DNA from: Escherichia coli
GTDB lineage: Bacteria > Pseudomonadota > Gammaproteobacteria > Enterobacterales > Enterobacteriaceae
DNA: 64,000 nucleotides
Strand: one strand, 5' to 3'
NCBI RefSeq assembly: GCF_022846255.1
Contig: NZ_AP025682.1
Shown: in pieces, positions 2,436 to 10,097 of the stretch
Position numbering within the stretch: position 1 is the stretch's first letter
Layout of the letters: each line of letters starts with the position of its first letter
Notes under the pieces: model-generated
Told to the model about the DNA's origin: nothing
What the model saw: only the letters and a program-made list of their open reading frames with translations
Databases searched by the model: none
Program-made: the position numbers and the translations under genes

Positions 2436-2594
2436 TGGGGGAACAGCGGGCGATCGCTCAAATGGTATGCTGGTTTATTTCATGTAAAAGAATAAAATAT
2501 CTGTATAAAATCATGCCACTGGCAATCTGCATCAACTCTCCGGGTAAACAGGGTTAAGATGAGCATTTCCCCGGTTTAATACAGGTATACAAAA

Positions 2595-3581
2595 GTGGAT
2601 AGAGATCAAACAAACAGCAGCCTGTTCAATGATGATCCCGTGCTTCATGCAACATGGCTGTACTATCAGGAAGGCAAAAGCCAGACTGAAGTTGCAGCTA
2701 TCATGGGGGTGTCCCGCGTCACGGTTGTCAAATACCTGCAAACAGCCCGGGAAAATGGACTGGTTCATATCAACCTGGATGTGAATGTCTTTGGCTCTAT
2801 CGACGCTGCTTTGCAAATTCGCGATAAATTCAATCTCCTGAGAGTGATCATCGTGCCGGATGGCGAACATGCCGGAAAACGTGATGATACAAAGCTGATG
2901 CGGACTCGCCTTTCACGTGCCGGTGGCATGTATCTGAATCAGGTGATTGAGAATGGTGATGTGCTGGGGGTTGCCTGGGGAAGAACAATCCATCAGATGA
3001 GCAAAACCATGACGCCGAAGTCATGTAAAAATGTCACCGTTATACAGATGCTCGGTTCCATGCCATCTCAGCCAGACCTGACGATCATTGAATCCTCATC
3101 GCAAATCGCCTACAAGCTTTCAGGCCGTGTCGCTTCGCTGCACGTGCCCGCCGTGGTATCAAGCGCCAGACTGGCCATGGAGTTACAGGCAGAGCCTATT
3201 ATTCGATCGAATTTTGACGTTCTGACTCGCTGTACGAAAGCCTTTTTTGTCGTGGGTAACACGCTTGATGAAAATCCCCTGATTCGGGTGGGCGTGCTGA
3301 ATAAGAAGGAAATGCAGACGTATCGAGATTTAGGCGCAGTAGGTGTCATTTGTGGCCGCTTCTATGACAAGGAAGGGATGCCCGTCGTGGCTGATGTTGA
3401 CCAGCGTATTCTGGGAATCAGTCTGGCTCAGTTAAGGCAGATTGAACGGAAGATCTTTCTTGCTGGTGGCGAAAGAGGCTATGACGCAACGTTGGGTGCC
3501 CTGCTGGGAGGATATGTCACTGACCTGATTGTTGATGAAGGAACGGCAGAGTTTTTGCTGGCGTGTGAATTACCACACTAA
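2595..3581 (+). CDS. SorC/DeoR-family transcriptional regulator (N-terminal HTH, C-terminal sugar-phosphate-binding domain)
   Basis: 328 aa; HTH segment SQTEVAAIMGVSRVTVVKYLQTARENGLV followed by a SorC-type effector domain. Confidence 0.8.
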   Translation: MDRDQTNSSLFNDDPVLHATWLYYQEGKSQTEVAAIMGVSRVTVVKYLQTARENGLVHINLDVNVFGSIDAALQIRDKFNLLRVIIVPDGEHAGKRDDTKLMRTRLSRAGGMYLNQVIENGDVLGVAWGRTIHQMSKTMTPKSCKNVTVIQMLGSMPSQPDLTIIESSSQIAYKLSGRVASLHVPAVVSSARLAMELQAEPIIRSNFDVLTRCTKAFFVVGNTLDENPLIRVGVLNKKEMQTYRDLGAVGVICGRFYDKEGMPVVADVDQRILGISLAQLRQIERKIFLAGGERGYDATLGALLGGYVTDLIVDEGTAEFLLACELPH

Positions 3582-3591
3582 AAGAATGAAC

Positions 3592-3626
3592 TACTGCCCC
3601 ATGTGGATATGGGGCAGGATTTTATT
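3592..3626. terminator. Hairpin between convergent genes (candidate bidirectional terminator)
   Basis: CTGCCCCAT...ATGGGGCAG stem followed by GATTTTATTG; sits between the stop of the regulator (+) and the stop of the transporter (-). Confidence 0.5.
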
Positions 3627-4626
3627 GATTAGCGGCGATAATAAGAACAATACCCACAATGTATGAAATAAACATAGTCAGCAGCAGTTTATTGGTTCCG
3701 GCTGGCGCACTGGCAAATTCTCTCCAGATGAAGACTCCCCAGATCACGGCAATCATTGTGGCACCCTGTCCCAGACCGTAGGAAATGGCATAACCCGCCT
3801 GACCAGACGCAATCAAACTGAATGCCAGACCGACACACCAAATCATACCGCCCAGCCAGCCGCAAACATGATCCCGTAAACTCCCGGAAAAATACATTTT
3901 CCTGTTGACAGGTTCTCCTGAAATAGGCTTTTTCATGACCAGCGTGTTAAGGACAAAGTTCGACAAAAACAGCCCCACGGCAAACAGAACAAGTGCTGAG
4001 TACGGCGTCATCAGACCGCTGGCAGGCTGGCTGAAATTGTCAGACATGGAGTCCGCCAGGAAGCGGAAAAACCATCCCATGATGATACCCGCAAGAATGG
4101 CAGTGATGAGGCCTTTGTTACGGCGAGATTTATCCGCCTCCTGCGTGACACGGCCATAGGCTATCGCGGTAAAAATAATGGCGATCACAACGCAGGCGAC
4201 ACCGAGGAACAGAATGAGCGGATCGCCCTGCGGATTGCCGATATAGGTGGTGATCACACCCAGAGCCAGTGCCAGCCCCACCCCCACAGGAAAAGCTACC
4301 GCCATACCGGCAAGATTAATAGAAGCCACCAGAAGAATATTGGAAATATTGAAGATAATCCCTGCCAGTATTGCCGACATCAGACTACTGTTGCTCGCCT
4401 GCTGAATATCAGGTATAAAGCTGCGACCGGCTTCGCCCATAGAACCCAGAGTGAAGGCAAATAACAAAGAACACAGCAATAATCCAATTGAATAATCCCA
4501 ATAGAATAGAGGGAACTCCCATTTTTTATTACTGACAAGTTTAGTTGTATTCGCCCATGAACCCCAGCAAATCATAGTAATAAAACACATTATTATGGCG
4601 ACAGCATACGATTCCACGATAAACAT
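3622..4626 (-). CDS. Sugar transporter, DMT superfamily (GRP/RhaT/GlcU-like), about 10 TM helices
   Basis: 334-aa hydrophobic protein with two-half internal repeat architecture typical of RhaT/GlcU-type sugar permeases; last gene of the kinase-isomerase-aldolase operon. Confidence 0.7.
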   Translation of the reverse strand: MFIVESYAVAIIMCFITMICWGSWANTTKLVSNKKWEFPLFYWDYSIGLLLCSLLFAFTLGSMGEAGRSFIPDIQQASNSSLMSAILAGIIFNISNILLVASINLAGMAVAFPVGVGLALALGVITTYIGNPQGDPLILFLGVACVVIAIIFTAIAYGRVTQEADKSRRNKGLITAILAGIIMGWFFRFLADSMSDNFSQPASGLMTPYSALVLFAVGLFLSNFVLNTLVMKKPISGEPVNRKMYFSGSLRDHVCGWLGGMIWCVGLAFSLIASGQAGYAISYGLGQGATMIAVIWGVFIWREFASAPAGTNKLLLTMFISYIVGIVLIIAANQ

Positions 4627-4729: not shown

Positions 4730-5371
4730 TTACGCTTTCAAACCATACGTTTTGAATTTTTCAAGAACGATGGTCATTTCGGCTTCAGACAGAACGGGAA
4801 CATCGTGATGTAATCCGCCACATTTGATGTATAAATCAGCCAGCGTCTCAGTTTCACCCGCCAGCCACAACGTCTTTTCCAGCGTGACGTCCATGGCCAG
4901 CATACCGTGGTGCTGCATCAGCAAGGACTTACTTTCTCTGATTCCTTGAGATACACTGTCGGCCAGTTCAGGGCTGCCAAAGGTATAATAGGGAATACAG
5001 GGAATATGATCCGTCCCCGATACCGCCACCATATAATGAATAGCCGGAATTGAATGATTATGTATTGCCACCGCCGTGGAATTCACCGCATGCGTATGTA
5101 TGACAGCATTCAATTCTGGTCTGGCTTTATAACACGCCAGATGAAATAGCCATTCACTTGATGGTATTTTACCCGCTTCAGGTATTCCCTTATCGTCTAC
5201 AAAGACAATCATGTCCGGCGTCATCTTTGAATAAGCGATCCCACTCGGTGTAATCAACATGCCACCGGTATATCTGGCACTCACATTACCTGATGTTCCT
5301 TGATTCAGACCTGACGCATTCATTTCCCGACAAATGGAAATGATATTTTCTGCTAACTTAATCCTTTCCAT
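4730..5371 (-). CDS. Class II (metal-dependent) aldolase, FucA/AraD fold; candidate 5-deoxyribulose-1-P / methylthioribulose-1-P aldolase
   Basis: 213 aa, class II aldolase/adducin-domain size and histidine-rich motifs (HTHAVNSTAVAIHNH); positioned downstream of the MtnA-like isomerase. Confidence 0.8.
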   Translation of the reverse strand: MERIKLAENIISICREMNASGLNQGTSGNVSARYTGGMLITPSGIAYSKMTPDMIVFVDDKGIPEAGKIPSSEWLFHLACYKARPELNAVIHTHAVNSTAVAIHNHSIPAIHYMVAVSGTDHIPCIPYYTFGSPELADSVSQGIRESKSLLMQHHGMLAMDVTLEKTLWLAGETETLADLYIKCGGLHHDVPVLSEAEMTIVLEKFKTYGLKA

Positions 5372-5401: not shown

Positions 5402-6517
5402 TTAATGCAGCTCGTCCTGGAGTGCTTTACTCTTCAGGTCAGCAAACATATCCGCCAGAGCTGACTTACTGGCAGCACAGACTCCCCGTTCAGTAATGAG
5501 GCCGGTAATGTATCGGGCAGGCGTGACGTCGAAAGCGTAGTTCTCACAACGGGTTCCTTCAGGGGCGGTATTGACCCAGCTCAATTCTCCCTGAGTATTT
5601 ATCCCATAGACATGGGACTGCTCTTTTCCGTCACGTTGCTCAATCGGAATGGTTTTTCCGTCCTCGATAGTCCAGTCAATAGTGGGAGAAGGTAGCGCGA
5701 CGTAGAAGGGAACATGGTTATCATGGGCCGCCAGCGCCTTAAGATAGGTACCAATTTTATTACAGACATCCCCTCTGGCCGTGGTTCGATCGGTCCCCAC
5801 TATACAGAGATCAACGTCACCGTGTTGCATCAGGTGGCCACCCGCATTGTCGGCAATCAGGGTGTGAGGAATACCGTGTGAACCCAGTTCAAATGCCGTG
5901 AGTCCACCCTGATTACGTGGCCGCGTTTCATCCACCCAGACGTGAACAGGGATTCCGTTTTCATGCGCTTTATAGATGGGAGAAAGCGCGGTTCCCCAGT
6001 CTACGGTCGCCAGCCAGCCTGCGTTACAATGTGTCAGGATATTGACCACACTCCCGGCCGATTTTTTCTGGGCTATTTCGCGGATGACTTCTGCACCATG
6101 TAATCCAATTTGTTCGCACAACGCGACATCTTCCTCGGCAATTTCTGCCGCCAGCGCCCAGGCCACATCCTTGCGCTCTGATACACAGAGATCCTTCAGT
6201 GTGGCTATCATCCTGTCGAGAGCCCATTTGAGGTTAATTGCAGTTGGTCGGGTTTTGATAAGAAGGTCATAGTAACGCTGCAGACCTACGTCACTGGCAT
6301 TGTGGTTCATTCCCAGTGCGATACCATATGCCGCAACGACACCAATAAGCGGGGCGCCACGAACCCACATCTCCTGAATAGCCGCAGCGGCCATTTCCGC
6401 AGAGGTAAGCGCCACCACTTCAAACTTAAAAGGCAGCTTAGTCTGATCGATGATCTCTACCGCTTTTCCATCCCCGGAAACCCAGACCGTTCGGTAGTGT
6501 TTACCTTTAATATTCAT
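5402..6517 (-). CDS. mtnA: S-methyl-5-thioribose-1-phosphate isomerase family protein (eIF-2B alpha/beta/delta-like); candidate 5-deoxyribose-1-P isomerase
   Basis: 371 aa; translation shows MtnA/eIF-2B-type isomerase character; stop is 9 bp from the upstream kinase gene. Confidence 0.8.
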
Positions 6518-6526
6518 AATGACCTC

Positions 6527-7786
6527 TTACTTAACCTTCGCAGACTGGATGACGGAGTCCATATTTTTAAACTGGCGGGCATTGACAATAAGATCGCGCG
6601 CCATGGTCAATGCACGTCGTTCACATTCTGCGCGAAGCTCTGTATTTTCAATCTGTTTCAGCTCGGCAACGCCAGCAAAACCAATGATCCGGCGATTCAT
6701 TTCCATGCCGGCATTCACCAGGGAATCTTCAAGCAGCGTGGCAAAAAACTGATCCTGTGCGTCCTCAAGAGCGGCCCTGTTCTGTTGATACATTTCTGTC
6801 GGCCACGCGTCACCCTGTGTTTTGTTGTCCCAGAGCTGGCGGAACTCCCGGGTGAAAACTGACCAGGTGTGGACAATCTGCTGAAGTAGCCATTCCTGAT
6901 AGTCAGCGCGACGTTGCTCATTTGCATCCCACCCAGGGCGTGAGAAGAACGCCAGCAGGAGGTTGCCAATATAGTTGCCGATATCAAACGCCATTGGTCC
7001 CATGAAACCGAACTCCGGATCAATCACTTTGGTATCCGTGTCGGTCACCATGATTGAGCCTGAATGAAGGTCACCATGTAACAATGCCTGCGCTTCTGTC
7101 ATAAATTTGTACTTATAACGCATGGCAACCTGGAGCATCTCTACATCAGCCCAGGCCTTATGGACGGCATCGTCCAGCTCAGGAGAAGTCCAGTTATTCC
7201 GTTCCGCGTTGTAATAGGGCTCTGTGAAGATCAGATCTTCCGTAATTTTGCACAGCTCATGATTCAACGCGAACTCAGCAGTAAGCGCTTTTTTCTGTTC
7301 TGCTGACATGCCAATGTCAGACGTATTAAAGAGAGTCTGTGCTAAAAATCTGCCGATATCTTCAGCTAGCTTAGGGAATTTTTTACCGTTAATCAGTCCC
7401 TTACGCAGAATTACGTGAGGCGTCAAATACTCCATGGCAAACAGTGCCATTTCCGGGTCATAAAAATAGACCTGGGGAATCAGTGTGTGACCCGCGTACT
7501 TGGCTTCCTGACATAAGACGTTGTACTCAAAGCCCGCACGGCTCAGAGATAAAGGCCATCCTTCGCCCCCTGCACGAAGCCAGGGCAGAGCTTGTTTTAC
7601 AATGATGGTTTTATGTGTCCCCTTAACGATAAACACCATGTTCAGGTTTCCGTCCCCCACTTCTGAAACTTTCCACTCTTCTGGTAACCCTCCCGGTTCG
7701 CATGAAGGGGTCAGTCTGGACGAGAGATAACCAGGCAGCGTGTCACATGTCAGCGGCTTGTAACCTGATGGAATTGAATCCGTCAT
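6527..7786 (-). CDS. mtnK: Methylthioribose kinase family protein (MtnK-like); candidate 5-deoxyribose kinase
   Basis: 419 aa with the MtnK/aminoglycoside-kinase-fold catalytic motif HGDLHSGSIM and DPEFGFMGPMAFDIG; first gene of a kinase-isomerase-aldolase-transporter operon. Confidence 0.8.
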   Translation of the reverse strand: MTDSIPSGYKPLTCDTLPGYLSSRLTPSCEPGGLPEEWKVSEVGDGNLNMVFIVKGTHKTIIVKQALPWLRAGGEGWPLSLSRAGFEYNVLCQEAKYAGHTLIPQVYFYDPEMALFAMEYLTPHVILRKGLINGKKFPKLAEDIGRFLAQTLFNTSDIGMSAEQKKALTAEFALNHELCKITEDLIFTEPYYNAERNNWTSPELDDAVHKAWADVEMLQVAMRYKYKFMTEAQALLHGDLHSGSIMVTDTDTKVIDPEFGFMGPMAFDIGNYIGNLLLAFFSRPGWDANEQRRADYQEWLLQQIVHTWSVFTREFRQLWDNKTQGDAWPTEMYQQNRAALEDAQDQFFATLLEDSLVNAGMEMNRRIIGFAGVAELKQIENTELRAECERRALTMARDLIVNARQFKNMDSVIQSAKVK

Positions 7787-7810
7787 AACAGTTCTCCTTA
7801 TCTACACAGA

Positions 7811-7850
7811 ATGATAACTGACTTATCATATGGCAACTATACTTTATCAT
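7811..7850. promoter_or_regulatory. Candidate operator: palindrome ATGATAA-ctgac-TTATCAT plus a third TTATCAT half-site 13 bp away, 25-60 bp upstream of the mtnK-like start
   Basis: Read from sequence at 7811-7829 and 7843-7850, in AT-rich promoter region of the operon. Confidence 0.35.
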
Positions 7851-8291
7851 GTGTAAAGTAATTTGTGATGCATGTAGATTTTTTGAACTGGAGAAAATTA
7901 AAAATAATGTTGTATGGAGTCATGATCTTTACAGGAATTAGTAGGGTGCATTCCTGTTATTTATATAAAATTCATTGTATTACATAAAAATGACGGTGCT
8001 GCGCGGGGAATTGTCTCGGGCAATCTTAGACGAAAGGAAGTATTGAAGTGACAGAATAATCTACATTTTTTATACATGTGTATTTTTCTGTTGTCTTTTG
8101 TTTTTAGCGTATGGTGTTTTTATGCCGATGTCTAATAGACAGATAGATTCGAGGGCCAACAGCCCCATTATCATGATGGAGCAACAGAGGTGAGTCTAAC
8201 GTTTCCGTACTTCTTATCGATCGGCACTAACAATCCTTTGTGATAACGGTATTCCCACACAGAGAAACCCACGTACCTGAATAAAAAAAAG

Positions 8292-8720
8292 ATTACTGGT
8301 GTGGAAATGGGATTAACAGATTATGCCATCAAATCGGATGGTAATGAGGTCAATAATCCTCGTCATCTCATTAACGTCAACTGTAATCTGCGACGCAAAT
8401 TAGCCAGCATGATGAATAATAAACACAATCTGGCAAGAGCGTTAGGTGATGCTGATTGGCACGGCTTTATCAACAAACTGGAGTACAAGGCAGCCGAAAA
8501 AGGCGTTCATCTGGTAAAAATCGACCAGTAGTTTGTCTGTTCGAAAAGCTGCTATTGTTGTGGTTACAAAATGTTGCTTCAAAAACGGATCTGGCGATGC
8601 CCTGAATGCGGTGTTGAACATGACCGGGATATAAATGCGGCAATCAACATAAAACTTAAAGACATACAGGAATTAAAGGCGGCGGGCCCCGTCGTCTCTG
8701 TCTATGGAGGAGCTGCGTAA
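8292..8720 (+). pseudogene. IS200/IS605-family TnpB (RNA-guided nuclease) remnant: C-terminal fragment with internal frameshift/deletion
   Basis: Translation ITGVEMGLTDYAIKSDG...ARALGDADWHGFINKLEYKAAEKGVHLVKID matches the TnpB RuvC region; the zinc-finger segment RCPECGVEHDRDINAAINI follows in another frame; N-terminal ~200 aa absent. Confidence 0.6.
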
Positions 8721-8984
8721 ACCCGTCGTACAGACGGTTGCAGCCTGAAAAGTGGGAAGGCCTTGCCCGATTGGGCGGGGAGTAGTCACCCTTGGAGTCA
8801 TTTTTATCCGGTGTATTAATATGCTCCTAATAGTTAATCTGGTTATAATATTTTTTTTTTGATTATGATCACGAAAATATCTCGGTTTTTATTTGCAAAA
8901 CTTGAAACGTGAATCCAAAAAAGATAAATATTTGTCCGCAGTGACTTCTTTTCTGTTGAAAAGTTCAATCTAAAGGGCAAAAAA

Positions 8985-10097
8985 ATGAAAAAAATTACAG
9001 TGGCACTTTCTGTGGTTGCGGCATCTGTTCTGATGGCAATGTCTGCACAAGCGGCAGAAATCTATAACAAAGACGGTAACAAACTGGATCTGTACGGCAA
9101 AGTTAATGCAGAGCATTACTTCTCTTCTTCAGCTAGTGATGACGGGGATAAAACTTATGCTCGTATGGGTTTCAAAGGTGAAACTCAGATTAATGACCAG
9201 TTAACCGGTTTTGGTCAGTGGGAGTACGAATTTAAAGGTAACCGTACTGAAACTGAAGGTTCTGATAAAGATAAAACTCGTCTTGCGTTTGCAGGGCTTC
9301 GCTTTGGCGATTATGGTTCGCTCGACTATGGTCGCAACTACGGTGTAGCTTATGATGTTGGCGCTTGGACTGACGTGCTGCCGGAGTTTGGTGGAGATAC
9401 CTGGACTCAGACTGATGTATTTATGACCCAGCGTGCTACTGGCGTAGCGACCTATCGTAACAATGATTTCTTCGGCTTGGTTGATGGTCTGAACTTTGCT
9501 TTGCAGTATCAAGGTAAAAATGATAGTGCTGCAAAAGTGAATAACTGGAAAGGCCGTGACGAAGTTGAATCTAATGGTGATGGCTTTGGTCTGTCAGCTA
9601 CTTACGATTATGAGGGATTTGGCGTTGCTGCAACCTATGCAAAATCTGACCGTACTGATGGGCAGGTATCCTATGCTAAAGACAGCCCTCTGAATGCCTC
9701 TGGTAAAACTGCTGAAGTATGGGCTACGGGCCTGAAATATGATGCAAACAACATTTACCTGGCTGCAACTTATTCTGAAACTCAGAATATGACAGTCTTC
9801 GGTGATGACCATATCGCAAACAAAGCGAAAAACTTTGAAGCTGTTGCTCAATACCAGTTTGATTTCGGCTTGCGTCCGTCCATCGCTTACCTACACTCTC
9901 GCGGTGAAAATATTGGTGCGTTCGGTAACCAGGATCTAGTTGAATACATCGACGTAGGTGCGACTTATTACTTCAACAAAAATATGTCCGCTTTCGTTGA
10001 CTACAAGATCAACCTGATTGATGAAAGTGAATTTACCAAAGCATCTGAGGTTGCAACCGACAACATCGTTGCTGTTGGTATGACCTACCAATTCTAA
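8985..10097 (+). CDS. General bacterial porin, OmpC/OmpF/PhoE (GBP) family, divergent paralogue
   Basis: 370 aa; signal peptide ending [20 protein letters not shown], internal [25 protein letters not shown]-terminal YQF typical of 16-strand porins. Confidence 0.9.

Follow-up and report, generated by a model that had tools for sequence, protein, structure and literature searches.

Repressors of the SorC family are tetramers that place one dimer on each half-operator, and one of the two halves is often weak (PMC11229326). The operator of Bacillus subtilis DeoR, the regulator of dra-nupC-pdp, is 39 bp long, consists of a palindrome and a direct repeat of its 3′ arm, and overlaps the promoter (PMC11229326). 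At gapA, B. subtilis CggR is bound as a tetramer to two tandem, partly palindromic repeats about 20 bp apart, one a strong half and one a weak half, within an operator of 45 bp that runs from +32 to +77 (PMC11229326). A further member is YjhU of Escherichia coli, which Huening et al. 2025 renamed MtnR and studied on the common allele of its target operon, mtnK-mtnA-ald2-permease, in strain ATCC 25922 (PMC12632272). Here, we analyze the mtnK promoter in a 64-kb stretch of E. coli DNA (contig NZ_AP025682.1; hereafter the window), where a reading made from the sequence alone had noticed three ATGATAA/TTATCAT half-sites between positions 7811 and 7850 and had proposed them as an operator for the nearby SorC/DeoR-family protein. 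We found that two of the three copies belong to a pair of larger sites, A (7843–7856, minus strand) and B (7822–7835, minus strand), which recur upstream of the operon in other genera that keep an MtnR orthologue and which probably constitute the core of the MtnR operator.

The regulatory genetics of this operon have been described in the common allele. The four genes form one operon (PMC12632272), and transcription from the regulated promoter, P1, begins 72 bp before mtnK; promoter activity requires DNA 66 to 126 bp upstream (PMC12632272). CRP is an activator of the promoter, and in electrophoretic mobility shift assays it bound a 255-bp fragment from the ATCC 25922 allele (PMC12632272). MtnR represses P1, so that deletion of mtnR derepresses it by about 5 log2-fold, and this control is kept in a fusion that contains only 126 bp upstream of mtnK (PMC12632272). 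The authors stated that the MtnR binding site was unknown and tentatively placed the operator at CAAAT-N-ATTTG, over their −10 element (PMC12632272). The sequence-only reading had supposed that the nearby regulator acts on the operon, in agreement with this repression of P1 through no more than 126 bp of DNA. The link between regulator and operon is thus already published, and what we add is a predicted operator sequence.

The repeat cluster reads aATGATAActgacTTATCATatggcaactatactTTATCATg on the plus strand across 7811–7850, and all three copies lie upstream of the kinase gene as proposed. Copy 1 is ATGATAA on the plus strand at 7811–7817 (25–31 bp upstream of the mtnK ATG, which is at 7786); copies 2 and 3 are TTATCAT, that is, ATGATAA on the minus strand, at 7823–7829 (37–43 bp upstream) and 7844–7850 (58–64 bp upstream). 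Copies 1 and 2 form the perfect 19-bp palindrome ATGATAA-N5-TTATCAT (7811–7829) that had been described, but the additional TTATCAT follows after 14 nt (7830–7843) rather than 13, so that 21 bp separate the starts of the two copies in the same orientation. Read along the direction of transcription (minus strand), the order is ATGATAA, 14 nt, ATGATAA, gtcag, TTATCAT. The palindrome is the sole match in the window at one mismatch or fewer (0.37 matches are expected at up to two mismatches), and nowhere else in the 64 kb does any 7-mer recur at least three times within 40 bp when both strands are counted. Among dinucleotide-shuffled windows, 19% contain a cluster of this kind for one 7-mer or another; when only the 1.2-kb intergenic region upstream of mtnK is shuffled, the figure is 0.75%. 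Taken alone, the cluster is suggestive, not compelling, and the argument is carried by its placement and by comparative data.

To compare promoters, we aligned the Enterobacterales sequences without gaps, anchored on the conserved CRP half-site TCACA; a MAFFT alignment of the promoters was set aside because it paired Morganella site B with site A of E. coli, a shift of one repeat. In the anchored block, two related 12-mers start exactly 21 bp apart with TATAGT, TATACT, or TATAAT between them. From the start of site A, the aligned sequences are TACACATGATAAAGTATAGTTGCCATATGATAAG in the window, TACATTTGATAATGTATAGTTGTCACATGACAAG in E. coli EcN, TACAATTGATAATGTATACTTTGCATATGTAAAG in Providencia, TACATATGTATAGTTATAATTTACATATGTATCC in Morganella morganii, and TACTTTTGTATACTTATAGTTAACAACAGTAAAA in Xenorhabdus. 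Two metagenomic lineages show the same layout with paired sites 20 bp apart (TCACA..TGTCATTTGTTActgTATAGTTACATTTGTAAAT in L020 and TCACA..TTACATATGATCA in L024). The predicted promoter-distal half-operator, site A, is TTACACATGATAAA, with copy 3 as its right half, and the predicted promoter-proximal half-operator, site B, is TGCCATATGATAAG, with copy 2 as its right half. Both are pseudo-palindromic, and their dyads lie near 7850/7851 and 7829/7830, not at 7820. The consensus of the paired 12- to 14-mers is TTACAnnTG(A/T)(T/A)AA, with the two sites 19–22 bp apart on either side of the conserved TATAGT.

Each of the two sites is recognizable well beyond E. coli. TACAnnTG(A/T)(T/A)AA occurs at the register of site A in Escherichia, Citrobacter, Providencia, Morganella, and Xenorhabdus, and the EcN version of site A, TACATTTGATAA, is found as an identical 12-mer in the Chelonobacter intergenic region. 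The CA-NN-TG core of site B is kept in Citrobacter (TGTCATATGACA, a perfect palindrome), Providencia (TGCATATGTAAA), and M. morganii (TACATATGTA). The pairs lie at −69/−48 in E. coli, at −69/−48 in Providencia, and at −61/−40 in M. morganii, where TACATATGTA occurs twice; Chelonobacter has TACATTTGATAA and a second site 21 bp away (−49/−28) as well as a third at −103. The motif is also present near the first gene of the operon in Aliivibrio, Vibrio, and Pseudovibrio. The Vibrio promoters carry it without a clean two-site layout that we could discern, the second site overlapping the ribosome-binding region. By this comparison, the putative half-operators are conserved upstream of the operon, usually as pairs, across at least 10 genera that retain an MtnR orthologue. 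The proposal of an operator-like motif is thus supported for the two direct copies, which lie in elements conserved beside MtnR orthologues, and not for the perfect palindrome, which is not the conserved unit. Absence from orthologous loci that retain the regulator, which had been named as grounds for rejecting the motif, is likewise true of the palindrome and untrue of the two direct copies.

For the orthologous regulators, one genome per species was scanned with MtnK, and the contigs were looked up for MtnR homologues. An orthologue sits beside the operon in Citrobacter (98% identity), Providencia (89%), Vibrio (79%), L024 (74%), L020 (69%), Aliivibrio (66%), Morganella (59–61%), Chelonobacter (55%), and Pseudovibrio (51%). 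The regulator gene is convergent with the operon in Enterobacterales; in Vibrionaceae, Pasteurellaceae, and Pseudovibrio it is divergent, and the operon there has an rbsD/ABC-transporter prefix. The recognition helix, SRVTVVKYLQ-ARE-G, is invariant in six aligned sequences, and a common half-site is therefore to be expected. MtnR-like regulators also occur in Proteus (L018, 61%) and in a metagenome (L022, 54%), at 8001–8984, with no mtnK, mtnA, or ald2 nearby, the Proteus one adjoining an unrelated ABC transporter, which indicates that the family has members with other targets.

Motif statistics were obtained from promoters outside Escherichia. In a 12-mer seed search of 11 such promoters, the top seeds were all variants of TAC(A/T)wwTGTAwA, with a score of 114 compared to 105.9 ± 1.3 in dinucleotide shuffles, and none of 60 shuffles reached 114; with one sequence per genus the score was 93 compared to 87.3 ± 1.2. 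The motif search thus stands at z of about 5–6 against shuffles. Because some of the promoters are mutually homologous, part of this signal is shared ancestry; still, these bases have been retained. A position weight matrix (PWM) was built from 18 sites, none of them from Escherichia or Citrobacter, in which C3 and G8 are invariant. Applied to the intergenic region of the window, this matrix gave as its independent top matches a distal site at 8071–8082 (11.5 bits), site A (9.7 bits), and site B (6.3 bits), with site A ranking second and site B fifth. A pair of the quality of A and B, 20–21 bp apart, occurs in 0.14% of shuffled 130-bp promoters. Scans that left out each taxon's own clade regained the assigned sites in nearly every taxon. 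A pair test across the whole window at a low threshold returned two pairs, estimated to be about the number expected by chance, and the test restricted to the promoter was significant. Separately, a first PWM made from eight sites of Providencia, Morganella, and Xenorhabdus had its top match in the window at 19542–19553 (TACAAATGTATA), in a short noncoding stretch among overlapping open reading frames; this match is probably due to chance.

Several observations weigh against assigning the operator core to A and B. Site B is weak in E. coli, at the score given above, and the EcN site B falls outside the top five of its own region. The half-site is rich in A and T and carries little information, with only C3 and G8 invariant, so sites picked by eye run a risk of over-fitting, and some of the promoters compared are homologous rather than independent. 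The published transcription start coincides with the upstream edge of site A, which puts A and B downstream of the start and not over the authors' −10, and the authors favor the other semi-palindrome, CAAAT-N-ATTTG (PMC12632272). Finally, the arms of the proposed half-sites are closer together than those of the left half (OL) of the DeoR operator, which makes the register given here tentative, and the 7-5-7 palindrome fits the OL geometry better. On balance, we predict from these comparisons that A and B together form the core of the MtnR operator and hold this to be the better-supported assignment; that the three repeats lie in DNA contacted by MtnR, in one register or another, we regard as highly probable. 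Two related half-operators about two helical turns apart, as in SorC-type operators, are present at the level of sequence.

The main competing assignment concerns the palindrome itself: that 7811–7829 is the primary site for an MtnR dimer and that copy 3, 21 bp off, anchors a second dimer, giving the mirror image of the B. subtilis DeoR operator with its palindrome and direct repeat of the 3′ arm. In favor of this assignment, the palindrome has no mismatch and no second occurrence in the window, the 21 bp from arm to repeat resembles the 22 bp that we count between the TTCAA repeats of the DeoR operator, and GATAA-N5-TTATC has the 5-5-5 geometry of the crystallized DeoR O15 site, TTGAA-N5-TTCAA (PMC11229326). 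In Escherichia and Citrobacter, moreover, the arms are kept while the spacer varies (gtcag, gttga, gttgt), and in L020 (MtnR 69% identical) the corresponding position holds TTGTAAA-ttaaa-TTAACAA, an inverted repeat at 6 of 7 positions with the same 5-nt spacing. Against this assignment, the proximal arm is absent in Providencia, where MtnR is 89% identical and has the same recognition helix, and also in Morganella, Xenorhabdus, L024, and Chelonobacter; the palindrome is imperfect in the common, studied E. coli allele (ATGACAA...TTATCAT, with TTGATAA as the distal copy); and the universally conserved TTACA/CA left halves are left without explanation. We therefore consider a primary role for the palindrome unlikely, at about one part in four of our expectation. 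Copy 1 itself is present in EcN-type E. coli and in Citrobacter On2M, is one base off in Citrobacter amalonaticus (TTATCGT), and is absent from the orthologous promoters compared in Providencia, Morganella, Xenorhabdus, L024, and Chelonobacter. It is most likely a lineage-restricted third element that may serve as an optional extra half-site.

The allele in the window bears on both this assignment and the published one. Its promoter is a minority allele, at least 99% identical in 12 of 1080 genomes and about 88% identical in about 1064. Compared to the common allele (L001), the promoter (window 7787–8240) is 88–90% identical and the proteins are 96.5–99% identical. In the common allele, the copies are TTGATAA (distal), ATGACAA, and TTATCAT, with gttga as the spacer, and the perfect palindrome is thus specific to the allele of the window. 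The authors' CAAAT-N-ATTTG, whose right arm overlaps site A, is degraded in the window (ATTTG to ACATG), and neither Providencia nor Morganella keeps its left arm; in the authors' −10 region, the window has AATTAC in place of AATAAT. Upstream in the window are a TnpB-like remnant (8301–8531) and a second porin gene (8985–10097), where EcN has a glycosyltransferase fragment. The divergence of the promoter relative to the proteins, together with the differing upstream content, suggests the end of a recombined island.

That the repeats are AT-rich repetition arising by chance or from −10/−35-like and UP-like stretches of the promoter itself, with MtnR binding elsewhere, for example at CAAAT-N-ATTTG, appears improbable to us. 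Some 7-mer cluster of this kind turns up in about a fifth of shuffled windows, the motif is low in information, and a consensus scan marks TATCAT as a −10-like hexamer on the plus strand. Chance does not readily account for a position and a usual pairing that are kept across at least 10 genera, nor for the significant motif search, and the authors' palindrome is both broken in the window and without a conserved left arm in Providencia and Morganella.

We next consider how A and B relate to the elements of the promoter. The hexamer TATAGT (7836–7841, minus strand) lies between the two sites and resembles a −10 element; TATAGT, TATACT, or TATAAT occurs at a fixed register to site A in at least five genera. 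Upstream is a CRP-like site, AAAATCTACATGCATCACAAAT (7861–7882, minus strand), with a 12/22 match to the CRP consensus; every Enterobacterales locus examined, like L020 and L024, has the right half of this site, TCACA, 7–8 nt upstream of site A. TATAGT begins about 30 bp downstream of the center of the CRP-like site. We suggest that TATAGT may be the functional −10, an assignment that conflicts with the published start site. The published P1 start at 72 bp corresponds to about 7858, and a start at about 68 bp (about 7854) follows from the CRP numbering in that paper; TATAGT fits neither. For the second promoter, P2, the text has 188 bp and a legend has 218 bp (PMC12632272). The comparison thus calls into question which hexamer is the −10 of this CRP-dependent promoter. 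Elsewhere in the window, 33894–33915 (AATTGTGATGTAGATAACATTT) is the best match to the CRP consensus (19/22) and has no relation to the mtnK operator.

With A and B as the operator core, repression could proceed as follows. The centers of A and B are 21 bp apart, or two helical turns, and the two sites therefore face the same side of the DNA. By analogy with other SorC proteins, in the absence of the pathway substrate an MtnR tetramer (a dimer of dimers) would sit on A and B, with one dimer on each, and would cover about 35 bp. With the published start (about 7854–7858), the complex would lie over approximately the first 35 nt after the start, as at lac O1 or the CggR operator. If TATAGT is instead the −10, the start would be at about 7829–7830, the CRP-like site would be centered near −41.5/−42.5 as in class II promoters, and MtnR would lie over the −10 and +1. 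From either start site, initiation or promoter escape by RNA polymerase would be blocked. A phosphorylated intermediate of the pathway would then release MtnR, as for other SorC proteins. Activation by CRP-cAMP is the step of this mechanism that others have demonstrated (PMC12632272); for MtnR, we infer contact with these particular bases, binding as a tetramer, and the identity of the effector.

The distal site, TACACATGTATA (8071–8082, minus strand), lies 296 bp upstream of mtnK and is the top match to the matrix from other genera in the whole 1.2-kb intergenic region. It has counterparts in EcN (TACATATGTACA at −297) and Citrobacter On2M (TACATGTGTATA at −300), and other upstream sites are found in Providencia (−199) and L020 (a pair at −410/−388). 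The distal site alone has an 8.9% chance of occurrence in shuffles, and the published 126-bp fusion works without it. It may be an auxiliary or looping operator for MtnR.

We also asked whether a different regulator (Fur, GntR, E. coli DeoR, MetJ, Cra, or CytR) might bind the repeats, and we judge this very improbable. ATGATAA is the core of the Fur-box consensus, GATAATGATAATCATTATC, and efeU, which is regulated by Fur, is the only other gene reported to be derepressed in the mtnR deletion strain (PMC12632272); the efeU Fur box is GTAATGATAATCGCTATCAC. The motif, however, travels with MtnR orthologues, including one in an alphaproteobacterium. As a Fur box, the best match was 10/19 over the motif and 11/19 in the wider promoter against a criterion of about 13/19, with hundreds of window positions matching equally, and the consensuses of GntR, E. 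coli DeoR, MetJ, Cra, and CytR were all at background level. The likeness can also be turned around: the Fur box has at its core the half-site preferred by MtnR in Escherichia, (A/T)TGATAA, and MtnR could therefore occupy DNA that resembles a Fur box. Were it to do so at the efeU promoter (GTAATGATAATCGCTATCAC), 5′-deoxyadenosine salvage would be coupled directly to ferrous-iron uptake, linking salvage of a radical S-adenosylmethionine by-product to iron and explaining why efeU is the only other derepressed gene; we hold this to be a long shot. In K-12 (L017, 4815–5360), TTAGATTTGATAAT lies 337 bp upstream of efeU and matches the EcN site A at 13 of 14 positions. As evidence for efeU as a second MtnR target it was rejected and is kept as a loose lead, since TTAGATTTGATAAT breaks the invariant C and the segment is missing in the extraintestinal pathogenic E. 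coli strain MS15052 (L025, 570–815). The 12-mer of the efeU Fur box was likewise rejected as an MtnR site, with a score of −1.4 bits. Least probable of all is that the palindrome acts as a hairpin in the 5′ leader, affecting mRNA stability or translation: it would be transcribed from either candidate start, and the minimum-free-energy fold has a 7-bp hairpin, but the fold of the leader is no improvement on that of shuffles (z = −0.06), no compensatory changes are seen (the arm in EcN leaves a C-A unpaired), other genera lack the hairpin, and an Rfam search of the leader gave no relevant match.

The locus is the dihydroxyacetone phosphate-shunt operon of E. coli, mtnK-mtnA-ald2-permease, for growth on 5′-deoxynucleosides. 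On the minus strand are mtnK, the first gene (6527–7786, Pfam APH-family kinase), mtnA (5402–6517, IF-2B-family isomerase), ald2 (4730–5371, Aldolase_II, a class II aldolase), and the permease gene (3622–4626, sugar transporter by Pfam and GRP transporter in RefSeq); the repressor gene yjhU/mtnR (2595–3581) is on the plus strand, convergent with the operon. RefSeq annotation of near-identical genomes gives mtnK, mtnA, aldolase, GRP transporter, and yjhU. The regulator has an N-terminal helix-turn-helix, with Pfam matches of its own, and PF04198 (E = 8.5e-79), and it is 99% identical to EcN YjhU. Its best PDB matches are B. subtilis DeoR, SorC, and LsrR, with DeoR (8r7y, E = 2e-42) the closest, which bears out the SorC/DeoR-family assignment made from the sequence. 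By homology, MtnR is a member of the SorC family and not of the family of E. coli DeoR, and its helix-turn-helix is clearly homologous to that of B. subtilis DeoR.

Upstream of the regulator gene, the same dyad, for which a search had been suggested, was not found: no ATGATAA lies upstream of yjhU and no site is conserved there across genera. A moderate match, CACTTTTGTATA (2586–2597, minus strand; 8–10 bits), overlaps the yjhU GTG start codon; it is identical in EcN, shows small changes in both Citrobacter loci, and has no counterpart in Providencia or Morganella. We rejected it as an autoregulatory site since Providencia and Morganella have unrelated upstream regions, with yjhU in Morganella directly adjoining the gene before it. 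Published chromatin immunoprecipitation with exonuclease treatment for YjhU in K-12, a strain without the mtnK operon, gave zero peaks, which is consistent with the mtnK promoter as the main target of MtnR.

The assignment of A and B yields a falsifiable prediction of two 14-bp sites at defined coordinates with an invariant C and G, which fall at 7853 and 7848 in A and at 7832 and 7827 in B (bases of the minus strand). The family consensus, TTACAnnTG(T/A)(A/T)AA in pairs about 21 bp apart, could serve in searches for MtnR regulons among Enterobacterales, Vibrionaceae, and Pasteurellaceae. The promoter in question governs the use of 5′-deoxynucleosides by extraintestinal pathogenic E. coli. The element is of an ordinary kind, a repressor operator, and not a new mechanism, and the evidence points away from the authors' tentative site.

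Relative to the published account, our prediction deals with the operon, the regulator, and the 126-bp control region already studied there, and the ATTTG right arm overlaps the core of site A in the authors' allele (PMC12632272). It differs in that the pair of A and B lies 3–50 bp further downstream than CAAAT-N-ATTTG, which other genera do not conserve. Among solved structures, MtnR has its closest homologue in B. subtilis DeoR (8r7y and related structures; PMC11229326), whose operator pairs a half-operator that is a good palindrome with a degenerate one that has the direct repeat. The span of A and B, about 35 bp, and the weaker site B in E. coli match the SorC-family pattern. We count about 23 bp between the centers of the DeoR half-operators, compared to 21 bp for A and B. 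Site A agrees with the right half (OR) of the DeoR operator, TTACATATGTTCAA, in 11 of 14 bases, a match equaled at only 4 of about 128,000 window positions, and the M. morganii site B and the DeoR operator have the run TTTACATATGT in common. The effector of DeoR is a phosphosugar of the pathway that it regulates. There are also differences from DeoR: the arms of the predicted MtnR sites are closer (TACA-N2-TGTA) than those of DeoR OL (TTGAA-N6-TTCAA); the DeoR operator lies at −60 to −21, whereas A and B lie at or downstream of the start region; and in Enterobacterales mtnR is convergent with and downstream of the operon, unlike the arrangement of deoR. In its position downstream of the start, the CggR operator resembles A and B under the published start site. 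CggR itself differs from MtnR in having a winged-helix DNA-binding domain, a GC-rich recognition sequence (CGGGAC-N6-TGTC), and fructose-1,6-bisphosphate as its effector.

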